This document shows, piece by piece, positions 15,440 to 31,497 of a stretch of 64,000 bases of DNA. Position numbers and translations under genes: made by a program. The notes under the pieces were generated by a model. That model ran no database searches. It saw only the letters and a list, made by a program, of their open reading frames with translations, and was not told where the DNA came from. Each line of letters starts with the position of its first letter. The first letter of the stretch is position 1. Source of the DNA: an uncultured Opitutales bacterium (GTDB lineage: Bacteria > Verrucomicrobiota > Verrucomicrobiia > Opitutales > CAZQIE01); assembly GCA_964593675.1 (NCBI GenBank), contig CAZQIE010000004.1, forward strand, positions 7,267 to 71,266, written 5' to 3'.

Positions 15440-16438
15440 ATGACTTCCCTCTGTGCTCTAGTCTGCGGCGGCGGCGGCTTCATCGGCGGCCACCTCGCCA
15501 AGCGCCTCCTCGACGACGGCCTCCAGGTCCGCTGCGTCGACATCAAGCCCCTCTCCGAGTGGTACCAGGTCCACCCCCGCGCCGAAAACCTCGTCCTCGA
15601 CCTCCGCCTCGCCGACGCCTGCGGCATCGCCACCTCCGGCATCGACCACGTTTACAACCTCGCCGCGGACATGGGCGGCATGGGCTTCATCGAAAACAAC
15701 AAAGCCCTCTGCATGCTCAGCGTGCTCATCAACACGCACCTCCTCATGGCCTCCCGCGAGGCCCGCGTAAAACGCTTCTTCTACGCCTCCTCCGCCTGCG
15801 TTTACGCCGCCGACAAGCAGACCACCACCGAAAACCCCGGCCTCAGGGAGTCCGACGCCTACCCCGCCATGCCCGAAGACGGCTACGGCTGGGAGAAGCT
15901 CTTCTCCGAACGCATGTGCCGCCACTTCACCGAAGACTTCGGCCTTGAGACCCGCGTCGCACGCTTCCACAACGTCTACGGCCCCTTCGGCACCTATGAC
16001 GGCGGCCGCGAAAAAGCCCCGGCCGCCATCTGCCGCAAAGTCATTTCCGCAAAACTTAATAAGCAGGACTCCATCGAGATCTGGGGCGACGGCCTCCAGA
16101 CCCGCAGCTTCATGTACATTGATGACTGCATCCGCGGCATCCTCGAGCTCATGCACAGCAACGTCCGCGAGCCCCTGAACCTCGGCAGCGCCGAAATGGT
16201 CTCCATCAACCAGCTCGTCGAGATCGTCGAAAACATCGCCCACCTCTCCCTCAAGCGCCGTTACAAGCTCGATGCCCCCAAAGGCGTGCGCGGCCGCAGC
16301 AGCGACAACACCCTTTTCCGCAGCCATTTTGGCTGGGAGCCCTCGACCACCCTCCGCGCAGGCCTCGAAAAAACCTACGCCTGGATCGAAGCGGAAATGC
16401 AGAAGGCTCACTCCCCCTTTGCGCACGCCCATGGCTAA
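15440..16438 (+). CDS. gme: GDP-mannose 3,5-epimerase-like SDR
   Basis: GGGGFIGGHL, VYNLAADMGGMGFI, RFFYASSACVY, the YGWEK catalytic Y-x3-K, FHNVYGPFGT..GGREKAPAA.CRK, WGDGLQTRSF and GVRGR.SDN are collinear with plant and bacterial GME. Confidence 0.85.
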   Translation: MTSLCALVCGGGGFIGGHLAKRLLDDGLQVRCVDIKPLSEWYQVHPRAENLVLDLRLADACGIATSGIDHVYNLAADMGGMGFIENNKALCMLSVLINTHLLMASREARVKRFFYASSACVYAADKQTTTENPGLRESDAYPAMPEDGYGWEKLFSERMCRHFTEDFGLETRVARFHNVYGPFGTYDGGREKAPAAICRKVISAKLNKQDSIEIWGDGLQTRSFMYIDDCIRGILELMHSNVREPLNLGSAEMVSINQLVEIVENIAHLSLKRRYKLDAPKGVRGRSSDNTLFRSHFGWEPSTTLRAGLEKTYAWIEAEMQKAHSPFAHAHG

Positions 16439-17786
16439 CGCCACCCCTCTCTTTCCCCAAGGCTGGTCCCCCAGCCGCCTCTCTGTCGTCGGCCTCGGCA
16501 AGCTCGGCAGTTGCATGGCCGCCGCCTTCGCCTCCCGCGGCTTCGACGTCATCGGCGTCGACGTCAACACACGCACCGTCGACCTCGTCGGCCGCGGCGA
16601 AGCCCCCGTCGTTGAGACCGGTCTCGCGGACATGCTCCGCGACAACCGCCAGCGCCTCCGCGCCACCACCTCCCATGACGAGGCCATCGACCAGACCGAC
16701 GCCACCTTCGTCATCGTACCCACCCCCAGCGACGCCAACGGCTCCTTCTCCACCCAATACGCCGCCTGGGCCTTCCAGGAACTCGGCGCCTCCCTCAGGA
16801 AAAAAGCCGGCAAGCCCCACCTCTTTGTGATGACCAGCACCGTCCTCCCCGGCGCCTGCCGCGACGTGCTCGTCCCCACCCTCGAAAAAGCCTCCGGCCT
16901 CAAGGCGGGCCGCGATTTCGGCTTCTGCTACTCCCCCGAATTCATCGCCCTCGGCAGCGTCATCCGGGACTTCCTCAACCCCGACTTCACCCTCGTCGGC
17001 GAATGGGACGCCCCCTCCGGCGCCGCCCTGGAAGCCATCTACAAACGCGTCCTCCTCAACGGCGCCCCCTGCCGCCGCATGAGCGTCGAGAACGCCGAGC
17101 TCGCCAAAGTCTCCCTCAACGCCTACGTCACCCTCAAGATCACCTTCGCCAACATGCTCGCCGAGGCCTGCGCCAAGCTCCCCGGCGGCGATGTCGACGC
17201 CGTGACCCAGGCCCTCGGGTTTGACCGCCGTATCGGCTCCCGCTACCTCCGCGGCGGCTCCAGCTTCGGCGGCCCCTGCTTCCCGCGCGACAACCGCGCC
17301 CTCGCCCATGCCCTCGGTGAGCTCGGCGTGCCTCAGGATCTCCCCCTTACCACCGACCGCCTCAACGAAACCTGGATCGACCGCACCACCGACCGCGTCG
17401 CCTTCCTCGTGCCTGCCGGCTCCACCGTCACGCTCCTCGGCCTCTCCTACAAGCCCGCGTCCCCGGTCCTCGAAGCCTCGGCCTCCCTCGCGCTCGCCGA
17501 GCGCCTCAGCTCACGCGGCTTCCGTGTCGTCGCGCACGACCCCCTCGTCCCGACCAACGCCTTCACCGGCCACCAGCGCATCGTCATGCAGTCCGACGTC
17601 CGCGCCGCCCTCCATAAGGCCAGCCTCGTCCTCGTCGCCAACCCGGACCCCGCCTACGAAGCCCTCCGCGAAGCCGACTTTGCCGACTGCGCCCCCGACG
17701 TCATCGTCTTCGACCTCTGGCGCCTCCTGCGCCCGCACCTCGCCAAGAGCACCAAGCTCCGCTACATCGCGCACGGCGTCGCCTGA
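16431..17786 (+). CDS. Nucleotide-sugar 6-dehydrogenase (UDP-glucose/GDP-mannose dehydrogenase family)
   Basis: The internal ATG at 16431 overlaps the gme stop by 8 nt. N-terminal Rossmann VVGLGKLGSCMAAAFASRGFDVIGVD, central NAELAKV..NAY, and a catalytic-cysteine region GGSSFGGPCFPRD. Confidence 0.85.
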   Translation: MANATPLFPQGWSPSRLSVVGLGKLGSCMAAAFASRGFDVIGVDVNTRTVDLVGRGEAPVVETGLADMLRDNRQRLRATTSHDEAIDQTDATFVIVPTPSDANGSFSTQYAAWAFQELGASLRKKAGKPHLFVMTSTVLPGACRDVLVPTLEKASGLKAGRDFGFCYSPEFIALGSVIRDFLNPDFTLVGEWDAPSGAALEAIYKRVLLNGAPCRRMSVENAELAKVSLNAYVTLKITFANMLAEACAKLPGGDVDAVTQALGFDRRIGSRYLRGGSSFGGPCFPRDNRALAHALGELGVPQDLPLTTDRLNETWIDRTTDRVAFLVPAGSTVTLLGLSYKPASPVLEASASLALAERLSSRGFRVVAHDPLVPTNAFTGHQRIVMQSDVRAALHKASLVLVANPDPAYEALREADFADCAPDVIVFDLWRLLRPHLAKSTKLRYIAHGVA

Positions 17787-17804
17787 CCTTCCTCTCCCTC
17801 CCCC

Positions 17805-18959
17805 ATGAGCAACGCCGGCACTCTCGATACCTACAACGCCGACATCCAGAAGCGCCTCGGCGCACGTTGGCCCCATAACGCCGAGGTTGCCCAAACCCGC
17901 CTCCTTACCGCCTGGGCAAGCGGCCTCGAACGCCCCGAGTCCATCGCCCTCGAAGGCGTCGCCGCCGCCGGCTTCCGCTTCCTTGAAGGCGGCCACCCCG
18001 AACTCGCCCGCCGCGTCCTCCCCCTTCTCGATTCCCCCGAGTTCGAGTTCGACCGCCGCTTCCTCGCCCACCGCTGCGGCCTCACCGACACCCTCCCGCC
18101 ACGCATCCCTTTCCTCCTCGCCACCCACGCCGGCGAAATCCCCAACCCCGATTCCATGGCCCGCCAGACCGCCGCCATGGACCGCCTTGCCGCCGTCGCC
18201 CGTGAAGACGGCGCCATCCATACCCTCAACATCCGTTACAAAGAGGAAAAGTCCGCGCACCCCGCGCTCCCCGACTCCTACCTCGAACGCTCAGGCCGCG
18301 ACCTCCTCGGCCCTGAAGTCCGCCGCCTCCCCATCATGCGCGAAGTCTTCGACCGCGCAGCCGACGCCGCCCACCGCGCAGGCCTCGAATATTTCGGGTT
18401 CATGAACGGCGACATCCTCATGCACCGCGACGCCATCGTCCTCGCGCGCATGTATATGGAACACGGCTTTGAAGCCCTCGCCTTTGTCCGAACCGACATC
18501 CCCGCACTCAGCCGAGAATCCCCCGCGGACTGGCTTGAAGTCCACCTCTCCGGCGCAGACCTCTTCATCTTCAAGACCTCCTGGTGGCGCCAGTACAACG
18601 ACCTCCTGCGCGACTACATCATGTCCTGCTACTGGTGGGACCGCGTTCTCATGGGCCTCATGGTCCTCTACGGCCGCGCCGCCTATGTCGCCCACGTCCG
18701 CGGCCTCATGTTCCACCCCGTCCACACCCGCGTTTCCACCACCCGCCCGGACGTTGCCCACAACACCAACCTCTGCATGCGCGAGGACTCCTTCTACTAC
18801 GACCTCAACTGCGCCTACATCCGACGCCTCGAAGAGTTCCTCGGCAAACAGCGCTCCCTTCCCACCTTCAAGGCCAACCAGGAACTCTACGAACCCAGCA
18901 GCCTCGTCGACTTCCGCCGGCGCCTCCGCCCAGACCTCTTCAAAACACCGGCCAAATGA
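17805..18959 (+). CDS. Hypothetical protein (possibly GT-A-like), conserved operon member
   Basis: ATG at 17805, 384 aa, normal composition. Its stop overlaps the next start (ATGA). No diagnostic motif; FGFMNGDILM and GADLFIF faintly resemble GT-A DxD and acceptor regions. Confidence 0.6.
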   Translation: MSNAGTLDTYNADIQKRLGARWPHNAEVAQTRLLTAWASGLERPESIALEGVAAAGFRFLEGGHPELARRVLPLLDSPEFEFDRRFLAHRCGLTDTLPPRIPFLLATHAGEIPNPDSMARQTAAMDRLAAVAREDGAIHTLNIRYKEEKSAHPALPDSYLERSGRDLLGPEVRRLPIMREVFDRAADAAHRAGLEYFGFMNGDILMHRDAIVLARMYMEHGFEALAFVRTDIPALSRESPADWLEVHLSGADLFIFKTSWWRQYNDLLRDYIMSCYWWDRVLMGLMVLYGRAAYVAHVRGLMFHPVHTRVSTTRPDVAHNTNLCMREDSFYYDLNCAYIRRLEEFLGKQRSLPTFKANQELYEPSSLVDFRRRLRPDLFKTPAK

Positions 18960-20587
18960 CAGACCTTGAGGAAGAGCTTTCCGGTCTTGAAGCCCTCGCC
19001 GCAGGCGCAGACACCGACCCCGCGCCCGCCGGTCTCCTTGCCCTCGCCCGCGCCTCCTGCGCCGCGGACTCCGCCTGGGCCGAGGCCTTCCTCAACCTCC
19101 TCGACACCCACCGCTCCATCGCGGTCGCCCTCCTTGTCTGGCGCCGCGCGGCCGCCTCTGGCGCCACCGCGCTCGCCGAAGCCGCCGCCTCCATCCTCTC
19201 CCGCCGCGTGCCTGACCTCCCCGAAGTCGCCGCGCTCCTCCAGCGCCGCGCTGACGACGGTTCCCGTCCGCCCCCCGTTGCCGCGCCTTTCTATCCCCTT
19301 GCTCCCCGCGCGTGGAACCCCTTTTGCGGAGACGAGTCCATCCCCCTCCGCGCCCTAGCAGGGTGGGGGGGCATCCATGCCGTTCAAACCCTCTGGGTCG
19401 TCGGTGCCCACGAGTTCCGCGAGCACGCCACCTACCGCAGGCTCTTTCCCTCCCTCCGCAACATCGTCCTCTTCGAGCCAAATCCCCGCCTCGTCGCCAG
19501 CCTCCGTGAGTCCTGCGCCCACTCCGGCGTAACCCTCGTCCCCTGCGCCCTCTCGGATCACGACGGCTCCGCTCGCCTCAAGATCAGCTCCAACGAAGGA
19601 CTCTCCAGTTCCCTTTTTGATTTCGGCCTCCACAGCCAGGCCGCGCCCGACGTCACCTTTGTCGAAGAAGTCGCAGTCTCCGTCCGCCGCGTGGATTCCG
19701 TCCTCGCGGAGCACCGCCTCCCCCTGCCGGACGTCCTCGTGATCGACGCCCAGGGCGCCGAGGACAAGATCCTCTCCGGCACCCCCGCTGCCGTACTGGA
19801 GCACGCCCGCGTCATCTACGTCGAAACCAGCAAGGCCGAAGTTTACCGCGGCGGCACCTCTTACCACGCCGTACAGCAGCGCCTCAGCCCCACCCACCGC
19901 TACGTCGCCTTCGCCTCCATCCCCGGCCACCACGGCCTCCACGGCAACTCCCTCTTTGTCCGACGCCTCGGCCGCACCGCCGCGCCCGCCCCGGTCGCCC
20001 CGGCGGACCCCTTCGCCCACGCGCTCAGCCTCGCCCGTCAAGGCCTCCTCCGCGCCGCCGCCCGCCTCTTCGACGCCTCCACCCATCCCAACGCCGCCCG
20101 CAACGTCGCCACACTCGAGGCCCTCATCGCCGCCCCCGCACTCCCGGCCACCGCAGCCCTCGTTGACGAACTCGACCAGCCCGTCCCCCTTGTCGGTGCG
20201 GAAGCCCGCCCCCTCTGGTCCCTTACCCCCGCGGACGCCGCCACGCTCCGCCTCGCCCTCACCGCCGATTTCTTCGGCGCCACCCGCCCGGACGTCTCCT
20301 CCCGCCCCCTCTACCTCTGGGGCGCCGGCGCAGGCGGACGCCGCGTCCTCGCTCTGTGCCGCGCCGTCGGCCTCAACGTCGCCGCCCTTGTTGACCGCGA
20401 CCCCGCAAAACACGGCTCCACCCTCGAAAGCCTCGCCGTCGTCTCCCCCGACGCCCTCAAAGCCGCCCAGCCGCGCCCCTTCGTCATCATCGCTTCCATG
20501 TACGCCCCCGAAATCGCCCGCCAACTGCGCGGCCTCGGTTTTGGGCAGGCGGACTTCTGCATCCCCGCACCCTTTTTCCAGCCATGA
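18956..20587 (+). CDS. FkbM-family methyltransferase fused to a C-terminal Rossmann-like module
   Basis: The true start is ATG 18956 (ATGA overlap); the upstream 124 codons of the track ORF are P/R-rich overlap. The central region LWVVGAHEF..VLFEPNP..PCALSDHDG..VIDAQGAE..IYVE is FkbM-like. The C-terminus is LYLWGAGAGGRRVLALCRAVGLNVAALVDRDPAKHG. Confidence 0.75.
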   Translation: MTDLEEELSGLEALAAGADTDPAPAGLLALARASCAADSAWAEAFLNLLDTHRSIAVALLVWRRAAASGATALAEAAASILSRRVPDLPEVAALLQRRADDGSRPPPVAAPFYPLAPRAWNPFCGDESIPLRALAGWGGIHAVQTLWVVGAHEFREHATYRRLFPSLRNIVLFEPNPRLVASLRESCAHSGVTLVPCALSDHDGSARLKISSNEGLSSSLFDFGLHSQAAPDVTFVEEVAVSVRRVDSVLAEHRLPLPDVLVIDAQGAEDKILSGTPAAVLEHARVIYVETSKAEVYRGGTSYHAVQQRLSPTHRYVAFASIPGHHGLHGNSLFVRRLGRTAAPAPVAPADPFAHALSLARQGLLRAAARLFDASTHPNAARNVATLEALIAAPALPATAALVDELDQPVPLVGAEARPLWSLTPADAATLRLALTADFFGATRPDVSSRPLYLWGAGAGGRRVLALCRAVGLNVAALVDRDPAKHGSTLESLAVVSPDALKAAQPRPFVIIASMYAPEIARQLRGLGFGQADFCIPAPFFQP

Positions 20588-21858
20588 GCCGGCTCGCCGT
20601 CATCGTTCCCAACTACAACCACGCCGAGTACCTGCCCGACGCCCTCAACGGCATCGTCTCGCAGACCCGACTCCCCGACGATGTCCTCATCGTCGACGAC
20701 TGCTCCACCGACAACAGTTGGGAAGTCATTCTCGATTGGCAGCGCCGCTTCCCCAACCTCATCCGCGCCGTCCGTAACGAAAAAAACCTCGGCGCCCTCG
20801 GGAACCAGAAACGCGGCCTCGAGCTCACCCAGAGCGACTACATCTACCTCCATTCCGCCGACGACCTCGTCGAGCCCGACTGCTTCGAAGTCTACACCCG
20901 CCTCCTTGACCAGCACCCGCAGGCTCCCCTCGTCGCCAGCCGCACCGTCGTCTTCAAGGAAAACAAAACGGACGCCGTATACGAAGCCGGCCGCTGGTGC
21001 CCCTCCGAAGGCTACCATGGCCCCGAAGAATGCGCCCGCGAGCTCCGCTCACGCTTCTTTTGCAGCGGCCAGGTCATGTACCGCCGCCACGCCCTAGATG
21101 AAGCCGGCGGCTTCCACTACGACCTCGGCAATTTCTGCGACTGGTTCTGGCTCCACTGCAACATGCTCCGTCACGGCATGTGCTTCACCCCAAGACCCGT
21201 CACTGTCTTCCGCCTCGTTGAAAGCTCCTTCTCGGCCACGCAGGACCGCGACCAACAGCGCCGCCTCAAGGCCGCACGCTACCTCCTGAACCTCCTCTCC
21301 GAACCCCGCTTCGCCGACGTCCTCCCGCGCTTCGCGGAAAGCGGCGTCATCCTCCAGCTTGGCGACGCCGTCGCCCACGCCATCCTCTCCGAGCCCCGCT
21401 GGTGGACACCCCAGATGTTCGCCCTCGCCTACGGCAACCTGCACGAGTGGGCCGAGCAAAACCGCCGCATGCGCCTCCAGGGCTTCCGCGTCTTCTCCGA
21501 GCCCACGCTCGAAGAAAAGATCGCGCCCGTCGCCATGCAGGCCATCGCCAAGTGCAACAGCCGCCGCGTCTCCAACGTCGCCTTTTACGGCGCCGGCACC
21601 CACACCAAAACCCTCATGGCCCAGTGGAAGCGCCTCGGCGGCCCCGCTCCCACCTGCATCCTCGTCTCCCGCAAGGCACCCGGACAAGACACCTTCGAAG
21701 GGCTCCCCGTCGTCTCCGCCCTCGAAGCCACCTTTGCGCCCGGCACCCTCGTCATCCTCTCCTCCATGAACTACGAGCGAGACATGGCCGCTGTCCTCCG
21801 CGCCGCGCACCCCGACGTCCCCTTCATCGCCCTCTGGGACCCCTCCCTTGGCCTCTGA
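20584..21858 (+). CDS. Family 2 glycosyltransferase with a C-terminal Rossmann-like module
   Basis: ATGA overlap at 20584. VIVPNYNHAEYLPDALNGIVSQT..DDVLIVDDCSTDNS and HSADD are GT2 motifs. The C-terminal VAFYGAGTHTKTLMAQWKRLG ... FEGLPVVS module recurs elsewhere in the locus. Confidence 0.85.
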   Translation: MSRLAVIVPNYNHAEYLPDALNGIVSQTRLPDDVLIVDDCSTDNSWEVILDWQRRFPNLIRAVRNEKNLGALGNQKRGLELTQSDYIYLHSADDLVEPDCFEVYTRLLDQHPQAPLVASRTVVFKENKTDAVYEAGRWCPSEGYHGPEECARELRSRFFCSGQVMYRRHALDEAGGFHYDLGNFCDWFWLHCNMLRHGMCFTPRPVTVFRLVESSFSATQDRDQQRRLKAARYLLNLLSEPRFADVLPRFAESGVILQLGDAVAHAILSEPRWWTPQMFALAYGNLHEWAEQNRRMRLQGFRVFSEPTLEEKIAPVAMQAIAKCNSRRVSNVAFYGAGTHTKTLMAQWKRLGGPAPTCILVSRKAPGQDTFEGLPVVSALEATFAPGTLVILSSMNYERDMAAVLRAAHPDVPFIALWDPSLGL

Positions 21859-22876
21859 AGCTCCCAGCTCCCGCCCCTACGTCAGCATCGTCGTCGTCTC
21901 CCGCAACGACGACCACGGCGGCAAACTCATGGAGCGCCTCGGCGCGTTCTGGGAAAACGTCACCCACTTCGCACCCCGCTCCGGCCTTCGCCTCGAAGTC
22001 GTCCTCGTCGAGTGGAACCCGCCCGCCGACCGCCCACCTCTCGCTGACGTCCTCCCCATTCCCGCCTTCCGCGACGGCCTTGACCTCCGCATCGTCACCG
22101 TCCCCGAAGCCGTCCACCGCCGCATCCCGCGCTATTTCAACATCCCGCTCTTCCAAATGATCGGGAAGAACGTCGGCATCCGCCGCGCCCGCGCAGACTA
22201 CGTCCTCGTCACCTGCAACGACCTCATCTTCACCGAAGCCCTCTACCACTTTCTCGCCGCGCGCGTCCTTGACCCCTCCCGCACCTACCGCCTCGACCGC
22301 TTCGACCTCCCCGTGCGCGAGCTCCCTCCCCTCGGCCCCCAAGGCCGCCTCGATTTTTGCGCCACCCAAACCTGCACCGTCTGCGGCGCCCGTGACCGTG
22401 AGGGCATAACCGCCATCACCTTTGACGGCCCCCGCCACGCCTTTCTCCGTGCCGACCCCCAAGCCCTGCGCCGCTTCGCCAACGCCGGCCTCGGCTACCC
22501 CCTTCACACCAACGCCTGCGGCGACTTCACCCTCATGGCCCGCGACGCCTGGTTCGCCCTCCGCGGCCATAACGAGCTTCCCCTCGGCGACGTCTACGTT
22601 GACGGCCTCGTGAACTTCGCCGCCGCCGCCCTCGGCCTCAGGCAGGTCTACCTCGGCGACCCCGTCCGCGCCTACCACATCGCCCACGGCCTCAACTGCA
22701 CCATCGACATCGAGCAGCGCCGCCGCCACCGGCCCTCCCTCAACTACGCCCTCGACTACGTCCCCTGGTGCGAAGCCATCCTCCGCAACAGCGCCCCCAT
22801 GAACGTCAATAACGACGACTGGGGCCTCGCCTACGAAGACCTCCCCGAAACCTGGCTCTGCCGCGCAGGCAGGTAG
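21848..22876 (+). CDS. GT2-like glycosyltransferase
   Basis: TTG start at 21848, an 11-nt overlap; no in-frame ATG precedes the conserved YVSIVVVSRNDDHGG region. VTCNDLIF is a DxD-like motif. Confidence 0.65.
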   Translation: MASEAPSSRPYVSIVVVSRNDDHGGKLMERLGAFWENVTHFAPRSGLRLEVVLVEWNPPADRPPLADVLPIPAFRDGLDLRIVTVPEAVHRRIPRYFNIPLFQMIGKNVGIRRARADYVLVTCNDLIFTEALYHFLAARVLDPSRTYRLDRFDLPVRELPPLGPQGRLDFCATQTCTVCGARDREGITAITFDGPRHAFLRADPQALRRFANAGLGYPLHTNACGDFTLMARDAWFALRGHNELPLGDVYVDGLVNFAAAALGLRQVYLGDPVRAYHIAHGLNCTIDIEQRRRHRPSLNYALDYVPWCEAILRNSAPMNVNNDDWGLAYEDLPETWLCRAGR

Positions 22877-22964
22877 GGCAGGGGCCCACGCCCGGCACCG
22901 CAGCTATCCGCCTCCCCTCCAATTTCCACAACGTTCCGCGCACATATCTAGCCCTCCCAAAAGC

Positions 22965-23822
22965 ATGAGCCGTTACACAAAGGAAGAGAAACTCGCCGCC
23001 ATCTCAAAGCACACCTGGTACCACAGGATCGACCTCGGCGACGGCGTCGTCACCCCCGGCCACGATTGGGAGCACCTCTGGAATATGATCCGCGCCGTGC
23101 GCTCCAAAGTTTCCTACGCGGAACGCGCCGTCCTTGATGTTGGCAGTTGGGACGGCCTCTGGGCCTTCGAAGCCGAAAAACTCGGCGCCCGCTACGTCGT
23201 CGCCACCGACTGCGCTCCCGCTCACCCTCTCGAAAACACGTGCGTCGACGCCAAAATGCCTCACGCCCTCGAGAAGTTTCTCCTGCTGCGCGAAATCCTC
23301 GGCAGTAAAGTCATCCCCTTCTACAACGCCTCCCCCTACAACCTCACCCAGCGCCTTGATTCCCTCATCTTCCTCAAGGCGAATTGCGAACACCTCAAGT
23401 TCGACATCGTTCAGCACTTCGGCGTCCTCTACCACCTCCGCAACCCCCTCCATTCCCTCTCGGAAGCCCGCAACGTCCTCAAAGACAACGGCACCCTCAT
23501 CCTTGAGACAGCCTGCCTCCTCAACGAGCCCCGTTCCGTCATGCTCTTCAACGGCGCCGGCGAGCCCAGCACGCTACGCTTCTATAAAGGCCGCACAAAC
23601 TGGTGGGCCCCCTCTTGGCTCTGTCTGAAAGAGATGCTCCAAACCTGCTTCCTCGAACCCCTCGAAGATACCGCCGAATTCCTTACCGTCGCCGGCTATG
23701 GCGACGTCGGCCGCGTGGCCGTGGCGTGCAGGGCCATCCCGGTAACTGAAGGCGATGCCAGGCTCCGCGCAGAAATGGCCCACTATTTCCGCAACCCCGA
23801 CCACATCCCGTATTTCGCCTAG
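22965..23822 (+). CDS. Class I SAM-dependent methyltransferase (CmoB/DUF1698-like), copy 1
   Basis: WYHRIDLGDGVVTPG, motif I VLDVGSWDGLWAFEAEKLGA, and FDIVQHFGVLYHLRNPL. The stop TAG at 23820-23822 is formed at the junction with the MITE-like element. Confidence 0.8.
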   Translation: MSRYTKEEKLAAISKHTWYHRIDLGDGVVTPGHDWEHLWNMIRAVRSKVSYAERAVLDVGSWDGLWAFEAEKLGARYVVATDCAPAHPLENTCVDAKMPHALEKFLLLREILGSKVIPFYNASPYNLTQRLDSLIFLKANCEHLKFDIVQHFGVLYHLRNPLHSLSEARNVLKDNGTLILETACLLNEPRSVMLFNGAGEPSTLRFYKGRTNWWAPSWLCLKEMLQTCFLEPLEDTAEFLTVAGYGDVGRVAVACRAIPVTEGDARLRAEMAHYFRNPDHIPYFA

Positions 23823-24134
23823 AGCGTATTCAGTTCAAGTTGTCGCGCCTGTTGGACATCCCTCCTTCATCCGCGCCGACGTGAGGAAGGGGCGTCCCCA
23901 CTGCCAAGGGCCGCATTCCGAGCCGTGCAGATGAACGAATCGGCCCACGCCGTGCGCCCAGCACCCGTGTCTTAGCGGAGCGGCAGATATGCCCGTGCAG
24001 CCCACCAGAATCGGCCCACGCCGTGCGCCCAGCACCCGTGTCTTAGCGGAGCGGCAGACTCGCCCGTGCAGCCCACCAGAATCGGCCCACGCCGTGCGTG
24101 GCGGCGCACGCGACAACCTGAAACCAAACTGCTC
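23822..24134. mobile_element. MITE-like palindromic element (copy 1, 313 bp) with TA flanks and internal tandem repeats
   Basis: Left end gagcgtattcagTTCAAGTTGTCGCG. The reverse complement of the right end is gagcagtttggtTTCAGGTTGTCGCG. TA lies at 23820-21 and 24135-36. The element fills the whole gap between two convergent genes. Confidence 0.6.
23922..24105 (+). repeat. Tandem repeat, about 70-bp unit x 2.7, containing three perfect ATCGGCCCACGCCGTGCG cores
   Basis: The unit gcccgtgcagcccaccagaatcggcccacgccgtgcgcccagcacccgtgtcttagcggagcggcaga starts near 23922, 23991 and 24062. The whole unit is conserved, so there are no unique spacers. Confidence 0.85.
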
Positions 24135-25660: not shown

Positions 25661-26518
25661 ATGAGCCGTTACACCAAGGAAGAGAAAATCGCCGCCATCT
25701 CCAAATACGCATGGTACCACCGCATCGACCTTGGCGACGGCGTCGTCACTCCCGGCAACGAGTGGGAACACCTCTGGAACATGATCCGCGCCGTCCGCTC
25801 GAAAATCGCCTATGAGCAACGCGCCGTTCTCGACATCGGCAGCTGGGACGGCCTCTGGGCCTTCGAAGCCGAAAAGCTCGGCGCCCGCTACGTTGTCGCC
25901 ACCGACTGCGCACCCGCCTACCCGTTCGAGAATACGGGCGTCGACTGGCAGCACGCCCTCGAGAAATTCCTTCTCCTGCGCGACATCCTTGGCAGCAAAG
26001 CCATCCCCTTCTACAACGCCTCCCCCTACAACCTCACCCAGCGCCTCGACTCCCTCATTTTCCGCAAGACCGGCTGCGAGCACCTGAAGTTCGATATTGT
26101 CCAGCACCTCGGCGTCCTCTACCACCTCCGCAACCCCCTGCACGCGCTTTCCGAGGCCCGCAACGTCCTCAAAGACAACGGCACCCTCCTCGTCGAGACC
26201 GCCTGCATCCTCGACGAGCCCCGCTCCGTCATGCTCTTCAACGGCGCCGGAGATCCCAAAACCTTCCGCATCTGTGCGGACCGCAGCACCTGGTGGGCGC
26301 CCTCCTGGCCCTGCCTCAAGGAGATGCTCCAGACATCCTTCTTCGAGCCCCTTGAAGACACCGTCCAATTCCTCCCGCTGAAAGGTCAGCCCCAAGACAA
26401 CATCGGCCGCGTTGCCGTCGCCTGCCGGGCCGTTCCCGTCGACAAGGGCGACCCCGCCCTTCGCGCCGAAATGGCCCATTACTTCCGCAATCCCGACCAC
26501 ATTCCCTTCTTCGGCTAA
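25661..26518 (+). CDS. Class I SAM-dependent methyltransferase (CmoB/DUF1698-like), copy 2
   Basis: 285 aa, the same length as 22965-23822 and roughly four-fifths identical by eye along the full length. The stop TAA at 26516-18 again abuts a MITE-like element. Confidence 0.8.
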   Translation: MSRYTKEEKIAAISKYAWYHRIDLGDGVVTPGNEWEHLWNMIRAVRSKIAYEQRAVLDIGSWDGLWAFEAEKLGARYVVATDCAPAYPFENTGVDWQHALEKFLLLRDILGSKAIPFYNASPYNLTQRLDSLIFRKTGCEHLKFDIVQHLGVLYHLRNPLHALSEARNVLKDNGTLLVETACILDEPRSVMLFNGAGDPKTFRICADRSTWWAPSWPCLKEMLQTSFFEPLEDTVQFLPLKGQPQDNIGRVAVACRAVPVDKGDPALRAEMAHYFRNPDHIPFFG

Positions 26519-26640
26519 AGCGTTTCTGCTTCAACTTGTCGCGCTGTTCCCTTCATTCCGTTACTCGCGCCGACGCGAGGATGGGGCGCCCACGCTCGCC
26601 GCAGGGCCGGCGTATGCGACACCCTAAGGCAGAAGTGCCC
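26518..26640. mobile_element. MITE-like element (copy 2a)
   Basis: aagcgtttctgcTTCAACTTGTCGCG left arm, gcgccgacgcgagg core, degenerate right arm gcgacaccctaaggcagaagtgccc. TA at 26516-17 and 26641-42. Confidence 0.5.
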
Positions 26641-26642
26641 TA

Positions 26643-26725
26643 AAGCACATCCCGTTCAACTTGTCGCACCTGTCGGATATCCCACCATCCACGCCGACGC
26701 GAAGTTGATTCCTCCTGAAACTTCT
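26643..26725. mobile_element. MITE-like element (copy 2b, truncated or degenerate right end)
   Basis: aagcacatcccgTTCAACTTGTCGCA left arm and cacgccgacgcgaag core immediately after the shared TA. The right boundary is unclear. Confidence 0.35.
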
Positions 26726-26763
26726 GGGGCGTATCCGGTTCACGGATACGCCCCTTTCTCTTT
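26726..26763 (+). terminator. Perfect 12-bp hairpin plus T-rich tail
   Basis: ggggcgtatccg gttca cggatacgcccc followed by tttctcttt. It lies between convergent genes and directly abuts the stop of the minus-strand gene at 26762, so it may act in both directions. Confidence 0.6.
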
Positions 26764-28222
26764 ACGAAAACGTAAGGCGCCGCGCCCCGGGGAACAGCCG
26801 GGCCATTGTCCGCCGCACGTCTTTCTCATTGTGCGTCCGCGGCACCAGGATCAGCGAAGGGCTCATGCCGCTCGCCGCGGCCTCGCTCGCCTCGCGCACC
26901 GGAACGCCTTCCAGCTCCGCCACCCCGGTCCGTTTGATCGTCAGCAAATACGCGGGCTTGGGCAGCCCCAGTTCCCTGAGCGCATCCAGAAGTTCCAGCG
27001 TATGCGCGTCAGCCCCGCAGGCAGCCAGCCCAGCGCCCGCCTCAGCGATCCTCCGCCGCACGCCCGGGTCTGCCAGATTCTTGCGTAGCCGCGCCGCCCC
27101 TTCCTCCGGCCAAAACGTTACCTGCGACGCCTCCGGGAACAGCAACTTCGCCGCCACGCACATCTGCGTGGCATACAGCCTCGACGAAATCAGCACCAGC
27201 CCCGGCTTCTCCACCGCACCCGCAGCTGCCTCCGACGCCTTCAGCACCCGCAGCCCCTCGAACTCAGCCTCCTTTGGCGTATCCGTTGTAAGGATGTACG
27301 CTGGCCGCGGCATTGAGGCCTCCTCCAATGCCCTCAAAAGCTCCTGCGTATGCCCGCCGGCTCCGTACACCGCCAGCGGCCCCTTTGCCCGCATCACGCG
27401 AATCCTGAACTCCGGCGACGCCACCACAGTCCGCACCTGCGTCAGGATCTCGTTCCCTCCCGGCGCCGTCTTTACCCACATCGGCCGGTACACACCTTGC
27501 ATGACCGGTTTCCCGAACGTGGCGTTCGGGCGCTTCTCGGCAACGCACACAATCGCGTACATGTCGTTGCCCTGACCCGCCCGCCCATACGAAATACCGT
27601 CCATCGCCCCCGGATAGTAATCCGCGTACCACGCCGGATCGCTCGCATGGTTCTCCGTGTACCGGAACACCTGCATCGTCGGCACCCCGTACCCATTCGC
27701 GCTGTAATAGTCCCAATACATCGTCGGGCACATCATGTACATCCCGTGGTCGATGTGGTTGCTCGACGGCGTCAGATGCATGATCCGGCCCCCTGGCGCC
27801 GTCAGGTGGTGCAGACACGCCAGCGCGTTCGGTACGTTGAAAATGTGCTCCAGCGTCCCCCCGTCGTAGATCAGGTCAAATGCCCCGCGCCAGGCCTGTG
27901 GCGGCTCCGGGTCATTTAAGTCGTGGATGATCTCCGGTTCCTCATACGCCGAGTAATCCATGGCCAGCACCGCGTCGAACCCGAGCGCCTGGAACAGCGT
28001 CCGCTGGGAAATGTAACCCTTCGCGCCCAGCTCCACGCTCTGCGACAGCTCATACTCGGCCTCGGCCATCCGCAGCGGATACCCATATATGGCAGCCAAC
28101 GTCTCCACCTCCTCGCGCGTTGCATACACAAACTGGTGCCCCAGCGTGAGCACCTTCCCCTGGAAAGGCCGCCTCAGCCCTTCCTTCATCAATACCGCGA
28201 TATCTTTGCGTGCGATGCCCAT
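26762..28222 (-). CDS. Methyltransferase-like N-terminal domain fused to two tandem Rossmann-like modules
   Basis: The N-terminus has FDLIYDGGTLEHIFN..LTAPGGRIMHLTP (class I MTase motifs post-I to III; motif I is atypical, VLTLGHQ). The C-terminus has LAVYGAGGHTQELLRALEE..FEGLRVL and LAACGADAHTLELLDALRE..LEGVPV. Confidence 0.7.
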   Translation of the reverse strand: MGIARKDIAVLMKEGLRRPFQGKVLTLGHQFVYATREEVETLAAIYGYPLRMAEAEYELSQSVELGAKGYISQRTLFQALGFDAVLAMDYSAYEEPEIIHDLNDPEPPQAWRGAFDLIYDGGTLEHIFNVPNALACLHHLTAPGGRIMHLTPSSNHIDHGMYMMCPTMYWDYYSANGYGVPTMQVFRYTENHASDPAWYADYYPGAMDGISYGRAGQGNDMYAIVCVAEKRPNATFGKPVMQGVYRPMWVKTAPGGNEILTQVRTVVASPEFRIRVMRAKGPLAVYGAGGHTQELLRALEEASMPRPAYILTTDTPKEAEFEGLRVLKASEAAAGAVEKPGLVLISSRLYATQMCVAAKLLFPEASQVTFWPEEGAARLRKNLADPGVRRRIAEAGAGLAACGADAHTLELLDALRELGLPKPAYLLTIKRTGVAELEGVPVREASEAAASGMSPSLILVPRTHNEKDVRRTMARLFPGARRLTFS

Positions 28223-28246
28223 ATAAATTCAAAGGTTCCTGTATCG

Positions 28247-29233
28247 TTATTTCTGTTTTCCCAGGCACTCGAACCACTGCGCCGTGGCCTGTGCGATCGA
28301 CTGCGGGTCCCACAGCGGCGCATCCTTCCAGTCGTCGATCCGCTCCAACATACGCTGCACACCCGCCTCCAGCGGCACCCGAGGCTCCCACCTCAGCGCC
28401 TTCCGGATCGCCGAAATGTCCGCAAACGTGCAATCCGGCTCCCCGGGCCGCTTCGGCAAGTGCGTCACCGGCCCACCCAGCAGCTCCACAAGCCGGTTCA
28501 CCGCATACGTGTGCCCCGACCCGACATTCAGCCGCACCCCCGTGACGTCCGATTCCGCCGCGGCCACAAACGCCTCCGCCACGTCCGTCACAAACGTAAA
28601 GTCCCGCGTCTGTTTCCCGTCGCCCACAACCGTGTAAGGCTTGTTCGCCAGCTTTTGGCGCAGGAACACCCCGAACACCGCGCCGTAGGCGCCTGTCGTG
28701 CGGCTCCGCGGCCCATAAACGTTGAACAGGCACAACGACAGCGCCGGAACCCCGTAAACCTTGTTCCAGTGGAACACCAGTTGCTCGCCCAGATACTTCG
28801 TCAACGCATACGGGTGCTCCGGTTTCGCCGGCGCCGACTCCGGCGTCGGGTACACGTCCGGAATCCCATAGCACGTCGAACTCGCCGTATATACAAAGCG
28901 CTTCACGCCCACCTGTCGCGCCACCTGCAGCACGCGCAGCGTCCCCTCTGCGTTCACCGAAAAATAATCCTCCGGCTTCTCAATCGACGGCACCAAGTCC
29001 GCACGCCCCGCCAGGTGGAAGAACCATTCCGCCCCCTCCACATCCGCGGCTTCCAGCGCCTGCACCGGCTTCTGCACCAGCCGGAACCCCGCCTTCTCCC
29101 GCGCCAGCGCAAGGTTCCCCGGCCTTCCCGTCGAGAAATCATCCACCCCCACCACGCTGTGCCCACGCGCCAGCAGGAGATCCGTCAGGTGACTGCCAAT
29201 AAACCCGGCCGCGCCGGTGACCACGCATTTCAT
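28247..29233 (-). CDS. NAD-dependent sugar epimerase/dehydratase (extended SDR)
   Basis: VTGAAGFIGSHL, ASSTCYG, and catalytic YALTK. 328 aa. Confidence 0.85.
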   Translation of the reverse strand: MKCVVTGAAGFIGSHLTDLLLARGHSVVGVDDFSTGRPGNLALAREKAGFRLVQKPVQALEAADVEGAEWFFHLAGRADLVPSIEKPEDYFSVNAEGTLRVLQVARQVGVKRFVYTASSTCYGIPDVYPTPESAPAKPEHPYALTKYLGEQLVFHWNKVYGVPALSLCLFNVYGPRSRTTGAYGAVFGVFLRQKLANKPYTVVGDGKQTRDFTFVTDVAEAFVAAAESDVTGVRLNVGSGHTYAVNRLVELLGGPVTHLPKRPGEPDCTFADISAIRKALRWEPRVPLEAGVQRMLERIDDWKDAPLWDPQSIAQATAQWFECLGKQK

Positions 29234-29344
29234 GTGTATCAGGTTTTTGAATACGAGGGTATGCGCCTGCCCGCAGCGTGAACGCCCGCGCCCGCCCGCC
29301 CAAAATCTCCCGCTCCCGCGGTCACTCCTTTCGGGCCGGCTCGC

Positions 29345-30913
29345 CTAGAACGTCAGCATTGCCATCCCGCTCTTCAACAGGCGGGCCTTCTTGATGCAGT
29401 CGCGGTTACCCACAATGCACACCGCCTGCGCCCCGGCAAGCTGGCTGTTGAACGTCGCCAGATCCAGCGGCAAGCCCGCCGCCGCCGACAACGACCCCAC
29501 CGCGCAGAACGCATCACCCGCGCCGATCGTGTCCACCGCCGTTGACTCGAACGGCGGAACCCGGCACGGCGGCTCATCCCCGTTAAGACCTATCGTCTCC
29601 ACCTCGCCCAGCGTCAGCCACGCATACTTCGCCCCAAGGTAGTCCTTCAACCGCGCCAGTTCCTCCGCGTGGTTGAACTCCTTGCGCCCGCAAGCCAGCG
29701 TCAGCTCCGTGCGGTCCAAGCTGAACGTGTCCGCCCGGTTCCACCGCCGGTTGATGATGTTGAAACCGTAATTGTTGCTGTTCGTCTGGCAATTCAGGGA
29801 AAGGAACCGCGACTTCTCCTCCAGCAGCAGCCGCACCGGGTCCTGATGCACCCCGTGCCCGAAGTCCATCGCGATCACCAGATCGTAATCCCCGATCACC
29901 GACTCCAGCCGCGACCGCATCCGTTCCACCATCTCCGGGCTCGGGTGTGTCGCGTCGATATAGTTTACCGAGAAAAGCTTGTTCATCTCGCGGCCCGTTT
30001 TCACAGGCTCCACGAACCGCTGCTTCACGATCGTCGTCACGTCCTCGCGCTGCACCAGATCGCTCTCCGTAGGCAGGTGCTCCCGCAGCAGCCCCTCCAC
30101 CCAAGGCTCCTTCCCCACATAAGCCATCAGGTGCGCGTGCGGCGTGAACTCCCTCACATGGCGGAAGACAGCCAGCGCGCCGCCAGCCTGCATCTCGTCC
30201 GCCACAAACCGCCCCGACAACATCCGGTTCTTCGACGTCAGCCCTTGCACCGACACCGTCGTATACCGGTCAAAAATGATATCCCCGACCACCAGCACCT
30301 TCAGCTTCGCCAGCCCATCCACCAGCTCGCGGAACCGCTGCGGCGTGAACCGCTGCGCCACGCGCCGGCAAAAGTCCTTCACGCTCGAAGGCACCGGATC
30401 AAAATGGTTGTTAAGGATGCGCGTGGAGCTGAACACCACGCTCCCCACGTAGCGCATCTCGCCCCCCAGCCGCTCCACCGTCAGCACGTCGTCGCGGATG
30501 TTTCCCGTCACATCCGTGCCCTCGTCCATGTATTCCCGCCCCTTGCAGTACACATGCGGGCACACGCACTCGATCGCCTCCACCGCCGCCGGGAACGGGA
30601 TCACCACCACAAAGTCCACACACGCCAGCGCGCTCAGCGCCTTCACCCGAAGCGCATTGTTAAAATACGGACGCCCCGGACCCTTGTTCACCATCCGCTC
30701 ATCCGTGATCGTCACCACCAGCACGTCCCCGTGCTCCCGTGCTTCCTCAAAATGGATGATGTGACCCGGGTGTACCAAGTCGAACGTGCCGTGGCATTGC
30801 ACGATCCGTTTCCCCTGCTCGCGCAGCGCGCGGAAAAACCCCGGCGCCTCCCCGAACGGCACTTCCTTTGCCGCCGTCCCCTTGCCATCAAAATCACGTT
30901 TTACCTGGAGCAT
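29345..30913 (-). CDS. Bifunctional sugar-phosphate nucleotidyltransferase (N-terminal) / PfkB-family sugar kinase (C-terminal), HldE-like with reversed domain order
   Basis: The N-terminal CHGTFDLVHPGHIIHFEEA is a cytidylyltransferase-fold HxGH motif. The C-terminal DTIGAGDAFCA is the PfkB signature. It overlaps the gmhA stop by 13 nt. Confidence 0.8.
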   Translation of the reverse strand: MLQVKRDFDGKGTAAKEVPFGEAPGFFRALREQGKRIVQCHGTFDLVHPGHIIHFEEAREHGDVLVVTITDERMVNKGPGRPYFNNALRVKALSALACVDFVVVIPFPAAVEAIECVCPHVYCKGREYMDEGTDVTGNIRDDVLTVERLGGEMRYVGSVVFSSTRILNNHFDPVPSSVKDFCRRVAQRFTPQRFRELVDGLAKLKVLVVGDIIFDRYTTVSVQGLTSKNRMLSGRFVADEMQAGGALAVFRHVREFTPHAHLMAYVGKEPWVEGLLREHLPTESDLVQREDVTTIVKQRFVEPVKTGREMNKLFSVNYIDATHPSPEMVERMRSRLESVIGDYDLVIAMDFGHGVHQDPVRLLLEEKSRFLSLNCQTNSNNYGFNIINRRWNRADTFSLDRTELTLACGRKEFNHAEELARLKDYLGAKYAWLTLGEVETIGLNGDEPPCRVPPFESTAVDTIGAGDAFCAVGSLSAAAGLPLDLATFNSQLAGAQAVCIVGNRDCIKKARLLKSGMAMLTF

Positions 30914-31497
30914 TGCGCCACCCTCTCTTTCAAGATGCGGGTCACCATATGCCCCACAACAATTTGCAAGTCCTCAGAAATCTGCATGTCGTCCACCGCG
31001 AAGTGCAGGGCGATATCCACCATCCCCTTGCACACCCCGCCGCTGAACCCCAAAATCCCCGCCGTCTCGAGCCCAAGCTCCTGCGCCACCTTCAGCGCCT
31101 CCACCACATTCGGCGAGTTCCCGCTACCCGACATCACCACCAGCAGGTCGCCACGCTTCCCCTGCACCCGTAGCTGGTTCGAAAAAATCTTCTCATAGCC
31201 CGTGTCGTTCCCCAAGCACGTCAGCACCGACACATTCCCCACCAGCGCGTGCGCCCTCAGGCCCTTTCCCGGCGACGGTGCCACCCCATACAAAAGGTCC
31301 ACCGCAAGATGCGCCGCATTCGCCGCGCTTCCGCCGTTGCCGCACAAAAACACCGTCGCACCGCGCTCCCATACCCCATACAACGCGTCCGCAAGCCGCT
31401 CCACGCCCGACCAGTCCGCGTCCTTCAACACAGACCCAAACCGCGAAATATACGCCTGGACGATCTCGCAACCGACGCTCTGGACAGTGGCAGCCAT
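30901..31497 (-). CDS. gmhA: Phosphoheptose isomerase (SIS domain)
   Basis: The internal ATG at 31497 gives a 198-aa protein with FLCGNGGSAANAAHLAVDL and VMSGSGNSPNV SIS motifs. The upstream 76 codons of the track ORF are G/R-rich and lie in repeat DNA. Confidence 0.85.
   Translation of the reverse strand: MAATVQSVGCEIVQAYISRFGSVLKDADWSGVERLADALYGVWERGATVFLCGNGGSAANAAHLAVDLLYGVAPSPGKGLRAHALVGNVSVLTCLGNDTGYEKIFSNQLRVQGKRGDLLVVMSGSGNSPNVVEALKVAQELGLETAGILGFSGGVCKGMVDIALHFAVDDMQISEDLQIVVGHMVTRILKERVAQCSR

Follow-up and report, generated by a model that had tools for sequence, protein, structure and literature searches.

In Campylobacter, the GHMP kinase HddA and the NTP_transferase protein HddC produce GDP-heptose, and the corresponding loci are located between the kps ABC-export genes. 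The methylmannose polysaccharide (MMP) cluster of mycobacteria consists of four genes, for two methyltransferases, one mannosyltransferase, and one hydrolase, and its product is intracellular (PMC9883506; PMC2674218). GM35E from Methylacidiphilum fumariolicum is reported to be the first bacterial GDP-mannose 3,5-epimerase (GME) to be characterized (PMC6678494). The enzymes for nucleoside diphosphate (NDP)-heptoses have been classified as mono-domain, kinase/nucleotidyltransferase, and isomerase/kinase/nucleotidyltransferase proteins, and the reversed domain order is not included (quoted in PMC11573728). The locus described here occupies positions 15440-31497 of a 64-kb stretch of contig CAZQIE010000004.1 (the window). 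It is a real 13-gene, 16-kb locus (g01-g13, Table 1) in a probable Opitutales bacterium (Verrucomicrobiota), and it resembles those parts of an O-antigen or capsule locus that supply, transfer, and tailor the sugars, minus the defining linked export genes. No characterized locus with this gene set and no matching Verrucomicrobiota glycan or FkbM/O-antigen system was found in the literature, in line with an earlier note on this DNA, made from its letters alone, in which the set had not been equated with an already characterized O-antigen or capsule locus.

The 16-kb region is a composite of a rare, conserved plus-strand module (g02-g06) and a widespread heptose-like cassette (g11-g13). Its product is predicted, with a probability of about 0.5, to be an exported surface glycan, namely an O-chain or capsule-like polysaccharide, for which the priming, export, and ligation genes are unlinked.

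Results

The Plus-Strand Module

The module encodes a nucleotide-sugar dehydrogenase (g02), a 384-residue protein (X384, g03), an FkbM-type methyltransferase (g04), a GT2 glycosyltransferase with a C-terminal domain (g05), and a 342-residue protein (X342, g06). Three other distant lineages were found to contain these genes, and a fourth contains part of the set. Synteny is maintained at 33-58% identity in DNA with a GC content of 42% (L008), 52% (L032), and 70% (L006). The L008 instance is from an Opitutales metagenome-assembled genome and was obtained in a scan of genome collections. The L006/L007 instance is on a metagenome contig, where X384 and the FkbM methyltransferase are fused in one protein of 896 residues. 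The L032 contig contains four FkbM genes, and its module abuts unrelated housekeeping genes on one side. Partial copies of the module are present in L004/L005. A metagenome scan returned mainly distant stand-alone proteins of the glycosyltransferase A (GT-A) fold without the module.

Protein g02 is 52-58% identical to the product of the first module gene in L006, L008, and L032, and full-length homologues of g05 with identities of 38-44% are encoded in the same three instances. X342 is 44-46% identical to the products of module genes in L006 and L032 and gives a partial match of approximately 28% to a 518-residue open reading frame (ORF) in L008. The other complete instances are also rich in methyltransferases, with four FkbM genes in L032, FkbM and two class I methyltransferases in L008, and FkbM domains in three proteins in L006. 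No GME, heptose gene, or exporter was found in the other module instances, for which 12-23 kb of DNA was available. Conservation of the gene neighborhood, the check suggested in the earlier note, is therefore seen for the module in distant lineages but does not extend there to the GME and heptose genes.

We interpret the dehydrogenase-X384-FkbM-GT2-X342 set as an old, rare, and mobile module that has been supplemented, in this lineage specifically, with the GME, the heptose cassette, and the extra methyltransferases. Because they are conserved in very different genomes, these five genes form a defined unit for biochemical study, and the X384::FkbM fusion strengthens this view.

The Heptose-like Cassette

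The cassette consists of a GmhA-like sugar-phosphate isomerase (g13), a fusion of a nucleotidyltransferase with a kinase (g12), and an extended short-chain dehydrogenase/reductase (SDR, g11). In g12, the CTP_transf_like domain is at residues 41-107 and the PfkB domain is at residues 390-508, which is the reverse of the domain order in HldE. The best NCBIfam matches of g12 are the HldE and rfaE domain models, and all are below the respective cutoffs. Scores of 103, 83, and 72 bits were obtained with PRK11316, rfaE_dom_II, and rfaE_dom_I against cutoffs of 521, 181, and 345, respectively. For g13, a score of 112 bits was obtained with the gmhA model TIGR00441, under its cutoff of 209. The domains assigned in the earlier note to the nucleotidyltransferase-kinase fusion and to gmhA were thus confirmed, but the heptose pathway is only probable because all of the heptose-model scores are well under the NCBIfam equivalog cutoffs. 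Since both the HldE score and the domain order fail, the g12/g13 cassette is called HldE-like only.

The nucleotidyltransferase half of g12 gave 52 bits with ethanolamine-phosphate cytidylyltransferase and 46 bits with the HldC of Burkholderia. Promiscuous heptose nucleotidyltransferases carry the motif (F/L)xxGRSTT (PMC11573728), in place of which VVFSSTR is read directly in the sequence of g12. A total of 2,543 matches to g12 were obtained at E < 0.001. The best 120 of these 2,543 are approximately 60% identical to g12, and almost all contain the same two Pfam domains, the order of which was read in g12 alone. Among the matches listed, the closest named relatives are from Opitutaceae, Opitutus, and other Verrucomicrobiota. 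This reversed nucleotidyltransferase-kinase is a very common Verrucomicrobiota enzyme with an architecture outside the published classifications of NDP-heptose enzymes.

The SDR gene named in the earlier note was confirmed as g11, which is GalE/UXS-like and for which the best solved relative is the UDP-glucose 4-epimerase 7ys8 (199 bits). An assignment of g11 as HldD was rejected, given a score of 91 bits against a cutoff of 275 and top matches that are GalE/UXS-like.

The cassette is present without the module in L001, L002, and L009-L012 and in many Verrucomicrobiota. In most of the contexts examined, SDR genes flank the fusion and a SIS gene is close by; the SIS gene adjoins or is near the fusion in L001, L002, L003, L009, L011, and L012. 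The flanking SDRs of the other genomes are 23-29% identical to g11 and are not orthologous to it. In L002, the cassette is directly beside genes for Wzz/GNVR, Poly_export, and Wzy_C. Neither the 64-kb window nor any of six further cassette contexts was found to encode a haloacid dehalogenase (HAD) phosphatase of the GmhB type. In E. coli, the gene for GmhB is unlinked.

The tailoring genes that follow the cassette elsewhere are different and include E1_dh + Transket_pyr pairs, YerE-like thiamine pyrophosphate (TPP) enzymes, zinc alcohol dehydrogenases, DegT aminotransferases, and small methyltransferases. The cassette together with the tailoring set in L001, L002, and L009-L012 looks like an uncharacterized and widespread pathway in which a nucleotide-heptose would be the basis for branched or higher-carbon sugars.

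Links between the Two Halves

One integrated pathway had been proposed in the earlier note. The separate recurrence of module and cassette speaks against this proposal, but the two halves appear to be linked indirectly, by domains shared between their proteins (described below) and by three features of other genomes. A homologue of g08 (37% identity over 331 residues), which weakly matches DUF1698, adjoins a homologue of X342 in L035. A methyltransferase domain similar to that of g10 (36%) is encoded inside the L008 module. The E1/TPP tailoring genes beside the L006 module are homologous to those beside the fusion in L001.

The g08-g13 segment is bracketed exactly by four copies of an intergenic repeat (Table 1), all on the plus strand, against 0 copies expected by chance in the 64-kb window. 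The repeat is 61-71 nt in length with an invariant core of 36 nt, CCCGTGCAGCCCAMCAGAATCGGCCCACGCCGTGCG. A structured RNA was ruled out, as there is no Rfam match and the folding is no better than that of shuffled sequence. The repeats may be elements of the repetitive extragenic palindromic (REP) kind or scars of insertion or recombination.

Glycosyltransferases

No match to X384 was found in Pfam, NCBIfam, or the sequences of the Protein Data Bank (PDB), and the family profile is also without a PDB match. A word-index search returned only the query itself. An exhaustive HMMER search yielded 178 matches in 1.84 billion representative proteins, nine of them at <1e-30. No glycosyltransferase Pfam domain is present in any of 40 aligned relatives, and TPR repeats are present in one. 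The AlphaFold2 (AF2) model of X384, calculated from the family alignment, has a predicted local distance difference test (pLDDT) score of 95.5, and the Foldseek matches are the GT-A transferases TarP, AvpGT, GalNAc-T2, and WrtF. The N201-x-D203 residues are invariant, and other aspartates and an HxxH motif show complete or nearly complete conservation. By this model X384, an unknown in the earlier note, is a GT-A-fold glycosyltransferase.

X342 is likewise without a Pfam or NCBIfam match. Its homologues number more than 2,500 and carry only hypothetical annotations; among the matches listed, no member contains a glycosyltransferase Pfam domain. The AF2 model has a pLDDT of 91 and is matched by Foldseek to the chondroitin polymerase K4CP, GalNAc-T2, and AvpGT; D125 is invariant. 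The Foldseek probability to GT-A structures is 1.0 for both X384 and X342, but the TM-scores are 0.34-0.50. X342 is also a GT-A-fold glycosyltransferase as modeled, and its family is a candidate new glycosyltransferase family. The profile-profile comparison of X384 with X342 gave a probability of 12%, at which sister families are not demonstrable.

Because X384 and X342 are both predicted to be GT-A enzymes, the locus contains three transferases with g05. Two GT2-type transferases had been counted in the earlier note; g05 is indeed a Pfam GT2 enzyme, but the 342-residue ORF is a GT-A protein without a Pfam domain, and the total is three. Two glycosyltransferase families with confident GT-A folds and no Pfam model are thereby flagged, one with more than 2,500 members and the other very rare.

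The X342 family spans Verrucomicrobiota, Desulfovibrionales, Thermodesulfobacteriota, Vicinamibacteria, and Bryobacterales, and many members are approximately 550 residues in length with an extra domain. A protein of 391 residues encoded beside the FkbM genes in L001 was considered as an X384 relative and found to be unrelated.

Methyltransferases and the PglD_N-like Domain

The five methyltransferase domains listed in the earlier note all survive scoring with hidden Markov models (HMMs). For g04, scores of 51, 25, and 70 bits were obtained with Methyltransf_21 (FkbM), the Methyltransf_14 C-terminal domain, and TIGR01444, respectively. The two DUF1698/CmoB-like proteins, g07 and g09, score 42 and 40 bits, and the Methyltransf_23 scores of 29-30 bits for g08 and g10 are marginal against a cutoff of 27. 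The locus therefore has a ratio of five methyltransferase domains to three glycosyltransferases. A high ratio had been noted earlier on a count of two transferases; the methyltransferase count stands, but the ratio is 5:3.

Proteins g07 and g09 are 80% identical, and their genes are 86-87% identical. A CmoB function was ruled out for both, given 60 bits with TIGR00452 against a cutoff of 275 and weak PDB matches. The duplication, in which homology begins 13 nt upstream of the ATG, flanks the opposite-strand g08 and could mediate inversion or deletion of this gene. The probable start of g08 is Met55 (25468), which gives a protein of 444 residues. A weak match to the NeuD N-terminus was obtained for g08.

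Four proteins together contain five copies of a Rossmann-like domain of approximately 90 residues, termed PglD_N-like. One copy each is C-terminal in g04 and g05 and N-terminal in g08, and the remaining two are in g10. Weak but consistent matches were obtained to the Methyltransf_14 C-terminal domain, to the NeuD N-terminus, and, through homologues of g05, to PglD_N. A profile of the five-copy alignment (A4) matches 3nkl, the N-terminal domains of PerB, VioB, and PglB, and the C-terminal domain of the sugar C-methyltransferase TylC3. In BLASTP comparisons, the g04 domain pairs with that of g08 (E = 4e-4) and the g05 domain pairs with both g10 repeats (E = 1e-8 and 3e-3), and proteins of the plus strand are thereby tied to proteins of the minus strand.

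In solved enzymes, domains of this class are found with nucleotide-sugar-modifying enzymes and contribute to nucleotide-sugar binding. By analogy with this role, the copies described here may bind nucleotides or nucleotide-sugars or serve for docking. In Verrucomicrobiota, many different glycan-tailoring enzymes seem to carry this domain as an appendage. In L010, another heptose locus of this phylum, the g05 domain is matched by the C-terminal part of a polysaccharide deacetylase and by a second ORF (842-1261, 3503-3757).

Supply of GDP-Hexoses

The assignment of g01 as a GME in the earlier note was upheld. Protein g01 matches the plant GME structures 8sg0 and 2c59 with 338-345 bits (E = 1e-100), and the next-best SDR has 103 bits. 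The motifs SSAC, YGxEKL, and GGREKAPAA are identical in the alignment with Arabidopsis GME 2c59, and the NAD-site motif GGGGFIGGH (GxxGxxG) of the extended SDR fold is present. We take SSAC to hold the catalytic cysteine, YxxxK the tyrosine and lysine, and GGREKAPAA the second acid/base lysine. Membership of g01 among genuine GME homologues is thus well supported by sequence comparison.

The nucleotide-sugar dehydrogenase reported earlier is g02, in which all three UDPG_MGDP_dh domains were found. A score of 313 bits was obtained with TIGR03026, and the best solved relative is AlgD, a GDP-mannose 6-dehydrogenase (217 bits).

Gene Layout and Flanking DNA

The GC content of the window is approximately 64%, and frame-specific GC content at third codon positions (GC3) combined with the ORF listing gave a single clear gene model. 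The 13 genes counted in the earlier note are all real ORFs with native codon bias (GC3 of 0.77-0.90) and intergenic gaps of <320 bp, and no housekeeping gene is present within the 16 kb. The coordinates are presented in Table 1.

Table 1. Genes of the Locus, Border Genes, and Intergenic Repeats, in Window Coordinates
Feature	Assignment	Position	Strand	Basis or detail
fabV	left border gene	13776-15008		
g01	GDP-mannose 3,5-epimerase (GME) homologue, 332 aa	15440-16438	+	structure-sequence match, motifs, Pfam Epimerase
g02	nucleotide-sugar 6-dehydrogenase, 451 aa	16431-17786	+	three UDPG_MGDP_dh domains, TIGR03026
g03 (X384)	rare unnamed family, predicted GT-A-fold glycosyltransferase with N-terminal helical domain, 384 aa	17805-18959	+	AF2 model, Foldseek
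g04	FkbM-type methyltransferase with C-terminal PglD_N/Methyltransf_14-like Rossmann domain, 543 aa	18956-20587	+	HMM
g05	GT2 glycosyltransferase with C-terminal PglD_N-like domain, 424 aa	20584-21858	+	Glycos_transf_2, 97 bits
g06 (X342)	large unnamed family, predicted GT-A fold, 342 aa	21848-22876	+	AF2 model, Foldseek
g07	DUF1698/CmoB-like class I methyltransferase, paralogue a, 285 aa	22965-23822	+	Methyltransf_9, 42 bits
repeat	intergenic, tandem, period 71 nt, between convergent g07 and g08	23937-24106	+	cores at 23992, 24063
g08	N-terminal PglD_N-like domain and C-terminal class I methyltransferase, longest ORF 498 aa	24134-25630	-	Methyltransf_23
g09	DUF1698/CmoB-like methyltransferase, paralogue b, own unit, 285 aa	25661-26518	+	HMM, 40 bits
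g10	N-terminal class I methyltransferase and two tandem PglD_N-like domains, 486 aa	26762-28222	-	Methyltransf_23, 30 bits
g11	extended SDR nucleotide-sugar epimerase/dehydratase, GalE/UXS-like, 328 aa	28247-29233	-	Epimerase, 178 bits
g12	nucleotidyltransferase (HldC-like) and PfkB kinase (HldA-like) fusion, 522 aa	29345-30913	-	Pfam domains
g13	GmhA-like SIS-domain sugar-phosphate isomerase, 198 aa	30901-31497	-	SIS_2, 81 bits
repeat	intergenic, two copies, upstream of gmhA	31695-31844	+	cores at 31712, 31801
dsbD	right border gene	32020-34107		

By gene orientation there are four transcription units, at 15440-23822 (plus), 24134-25468/25630 (minus), 25661-26518 (plus), and 26762-31497 (minus), rather than the three blocks proposed earlier, since g09 is a separate plus-strand gene between two minus-strand units. 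A strong terminator, formed by a 12-bp hairpin and a T-run, is located at 26726-26754 between the convergent genes g09 and g10. The overlaps within the plus-strand unit are exactly as previously reported. The ATG of g02 is at 16431, with an overlap of 8 nt (16431-16438); ATGA overlaps are present at 18956 (g03/g04) and 20584 (g04/g05); and the TTG start of g06 at 21848 gives an 11-nt overlap with g05, whose stop is at 21858. On the minus strand, the stop of g13 overlaps the start of g12 by 13 nt.

In GC3 and in the very strong strand-specific GC skew, the 13 genes are all like their neighbors, so the arrangement is long-resident in this genome, and recent horizontal transfer of the locus was ruled out on the same grounds. 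In hydropathy analysis, a strongly hydrophobic stretch was found only in g12 among the 13 proteins, and we interpret this stretch as a strand buried in the fold, not as a membrane span. All 13 enzymes are soluble and cytoplasmic.

Both wider flanks are composed of housekeeping genes. On the fabV side these are gyrB, gyrA, carA, and the genes for an aminotransferase, a lysine 2,3-aminomutase, and a GH88-like hydrolase. The flank on the dsbD side encodes a solute-binding protein, HSP20, SRAP, a LacI regulator, two methylmalonyl-CoA mutase subunits, a carboxyltransferase, an RND efflux pair, a DegT aminotransferase, and a response regulator. Within this flank, the two mutase subunits, a glyoxalase-fold protein (a possible epimerase), the carboxyltransferase, and an acetyl-CoA hydrolase/transferase are grouped at 42592-51782, as expected for a succinate-to-propionate pathway. 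The envelope or glycan genes outside the locus are those for a LamG-domain protein, a PEP-CTERM-anchored protein, and a DegT-family sugar aminotransferase (36551-37333, 41526-42440, and 61355-62533); none encodes an exporter.

The GC skew of the plus strand is -0.18 to -0.35 from gyrB to approximately 35.6 kb (window positions 1-36000), irrespective of the coding strand. At approximately 35600-36000 it flips within about 1 kb to values of +0.1 to +0.3 (36000-46000), and past 46 kb it is approximately 0. This change of sign would suit an origin of replication or the breakpoint of a rearrangement; the distance to gyrB and gyrA is 31-36 kb. No enrichment or cluster of DnaA boxes was found at the switch, and no dnaA gene was found.

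Discussion

In the pathway proposed from homology, g01 would convert GDP-D-mannose to GDP-L-galactose or GDP-L-gulose, and the AlgD-like g02 would make a GDP-hexuronic acid. The overlap of 8 nt between these two genes raises the possibility of an L-hexuronic acid product. The enzymes g13 and g12 would convert sedoheptulose-7-phosphate to an NDP-heptose with the help of an unlinked GmhB-type phosphatase, and the nucleotide added by g12 could be CDP rather than ADP. The NDP-heptose would then be modified by g11. Sugars would be added to the acceptor by X384, g05, and X342. The FkbM protein g04 would work physically with X384, since the two form one polypeptide in the L006/L007 lineage, and further methyl groups would be added by the DUF1698-like proteins g07, g08, and g09 and by g10. 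The PglD_N-like domains on g04, g05, g08, and g10 probably bind nucleotides or nucleotide-sugars or dock the enzymes with one another.

A conventional surface glycan with unlinked export is favored because relatives of X342 are situated in ABC-transporter and WbaP-primed loci. In L034, a homologue of X342 (42%) immediately follows genes for ABC2_membrane and ABC_tran, and the same locus encodes a Bac_transf primer, Wzy_C, a dehydrogenase, an SDR, MT23, and FkbM. In L033, a homologue of X342 (40%) is found with a dehydrogenase (44%), an SDR, and methyltransferases, in surroundings that encode giant multi-domain transferases, sulfotransferases, and an FkbM+RfbT-domain protein. The location of the L002 heptose cassette, next to Wza/Wzz/Wzy_C genes, also favors a surface glycan.

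Several observations weigh against this interpretation. As stated in the earlier note for the locus, and now found for the whole 64-kb window, the domains of Wzx, Wzy, Wzm/Wzt, WbaP/WecA, and the ligase are absent, and no export, priming, polymerase, or ligase gene was detected near the other module instances within the 12-23 kb available. ABC-dependent O-antigen loci normally contain wzm and wzt. The L032 module ends on one side at unrelated housekeeping genes. The module and the cassette each occur alone and thus may not feed one product. The scores with the heptose models are all below the curated cutoffs, and the nucleotidyltransferase half of g12 is slightly closer to ethanolamine-phosphate cytidylyltransferase than to HldC.

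The same lack of exporter and primer genes, in the window and beside the other module instances, could instead mean that the product stays in the cytoplasm as a polymethylated oligo- or polysaccharide, a Gram-negative analogue of the methylmannose and methylglucose polysaccharides of mycobacteria. The solubility of the enzymes, with the one hydrophobic stretch of g12 read as a buried strand, would fit such a product, as would the compact L032 module with its four FkbM genes beside housekeeping genes. The mycobacterial MMP cluster provides a precedent with an intracellular product (PMC9883506, PMC2674218). However, the locus is without a recycling hydrolase or acyltransferase of the mycobacterial type, relatives of X342 and of the dehydrogenase are found in ABC-exporter and WbaP-type loci, and the L002 heptose cassette is beside Wza/Wzz/Wzy_C. 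Uronic acids and heptoses are typical envelope sugars, and the absence of exporters elsewhere is weak evidence since the contigs are short. A cytoplasmic product is considered unlikely on this balance. A bolder form of it, which would be a long shot, takes the export-less module, with its one to four FkbM methyltransferases, as defining a new class of cytoplasmic, heavily O-methylated, uronic-acid oligosaccharide outside Actinobacteria, in which the PglD_N-like domains might keep the enzymes on a growing chain linked to a nucleotide and not to a lipid; here, an L-hexose derivative would be added to the chain, as would a heptose activated by the previously unclassified reversed HldC-HldA enzyme, possibly as a CDP-sugar.

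A further question is whether the 16 kb contains a single system. It could represent two or three separate neighbors, namely the module, a supply of nucleotide-heptose for the lipopolysaccharide core or another glycan, and stand-alone methyltransferases. The module is found without heptose genes in L006, L008, and L032, the cassette is found without the module in six contexts (L001, L002, and L009-L012), the four-copy repeat brackets exactly g08-g13, and the region is divided into four transcription units with convergent pairs and a strong terminator. Against this division, homology of the PglD_N-like domains connects g04 with g08 and g05 with g10 from one half to the other, the g08 homologue in L035 adjoins an X342 homologue, and a g10-like methyltransferase is encoded within the L008 module. 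In addition, the L006 module is joined to the E1/TPP genes that accompany the fusion elsewhere, and the 16 kb is uninterrupted by housekeeping genes. Separate neighbors are thus regarded as a rather improbable explanation.

Glycosylation and methylation of a protein or of a small molecule (a glycolipid or natural product), with no polysaccharide formed, is very unlikely. In its favor, polymerase and exporter are absent from the locus, the best fold matches include polypeptide GalNAc-transferases and AvpGT, a TPR + GT41 (OGT-like) gene is near the L001 cassette, and ADP-heptose is used in protein heptosylation and in natural products such as septacidin (PMC11573728), but these generic GT-A fold matches do not discriminate the type of acceptor, and no acceptor protein, carrier, polyketide synthase or nonribosomal peptide synthetase, or lipid-synthesis gene is conserved beside any module instance. 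The suggestion in the earlier note of a nonpolymeric product or a modification of protein or lipid received no positive support, and the relatives of X342 are in polysaccharide loci.

Nothing at the exported-glycan locus favored here contradicts current ideas on glycan loci, and beyond the features described above it is one more lineage-variable, uncharacterized glycan locus. The nucleotide specificity of g12 bears on the recently raised question of the purpose of CDP- and UDP-heptoses.

Comparison with Known Systems

The ABC-dependent O-antigen and capsule loci, such as those of E. coli O8/O9a (WbdD) and Vibrio cholerae O1 (RfbT), likewise combine soluble or peripheral GT-A enzymes at the cytoplasmic face with S-adenosylmethionine (SAM)-dependent methyltransferases. 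Relatives of X342 and of the dehydrogenase occur in such loci, by ABC2_membrane/ABC_tran and by an FkbM+RfbT protein. In contrast to these loci, no wzm/wzt, primer, or ligase is present here within 64 kb, and for the families of two of the three transferases there is no Pfam model. Unlike the WbdD system, the locus has neither a kinase-methyltransferase nor a coiled-coil ruler, and it contains five methyltransferase domains rather than one terminator.

The mycobacterial MMP system (ManT, MeT1, pMeT3, and MmpH) is likewise compact, soluble, and exporter-less with a high ratio of methyltransferases to transferases (PMC9883506). The FkbM, DUF1698, and GT-A families of the present locus appear different from those of the MMP cluster when compared by domain family rather than by sequence, and there is no glycoside hydrolase. 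The locus adds a GME, a dehydrogenase, and the heptose-like cassette, and it is from another phylum.

Protein g01 carries the catalytic motifs of GMEs and is from the same phylum as GM35E (PMC6678494). The candidate GME gene g01 differs in that it overlaps a dehydrogenase gene by 8 nt.

The HldE/ADP-heptose system is resembled by the cassette in its SIS isomerase, its PfkB-type kinase, its nucleotidyltransferase of the cytidylyltransferase superfamily, and its adjacent SDR. The cassette differs from that system by the reversed domains, the sub-equivalog scores, the lack of a linked GmhB, and a GalE/UXS-like SDR instead of HldD.

The capsule heptose loci of Campylobacter jejuni, in which heptose activation is beside SDR tailoring and O-methyltransferases within a hypervariable glycan region, were the analogy drawn in the earlier note. 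The likeness is thematic. The present locus contains neither HddA/HddC-type domains nor kps genes, and its heptose-like sugar would be activated by an HldC/HldA-type fusion instead.

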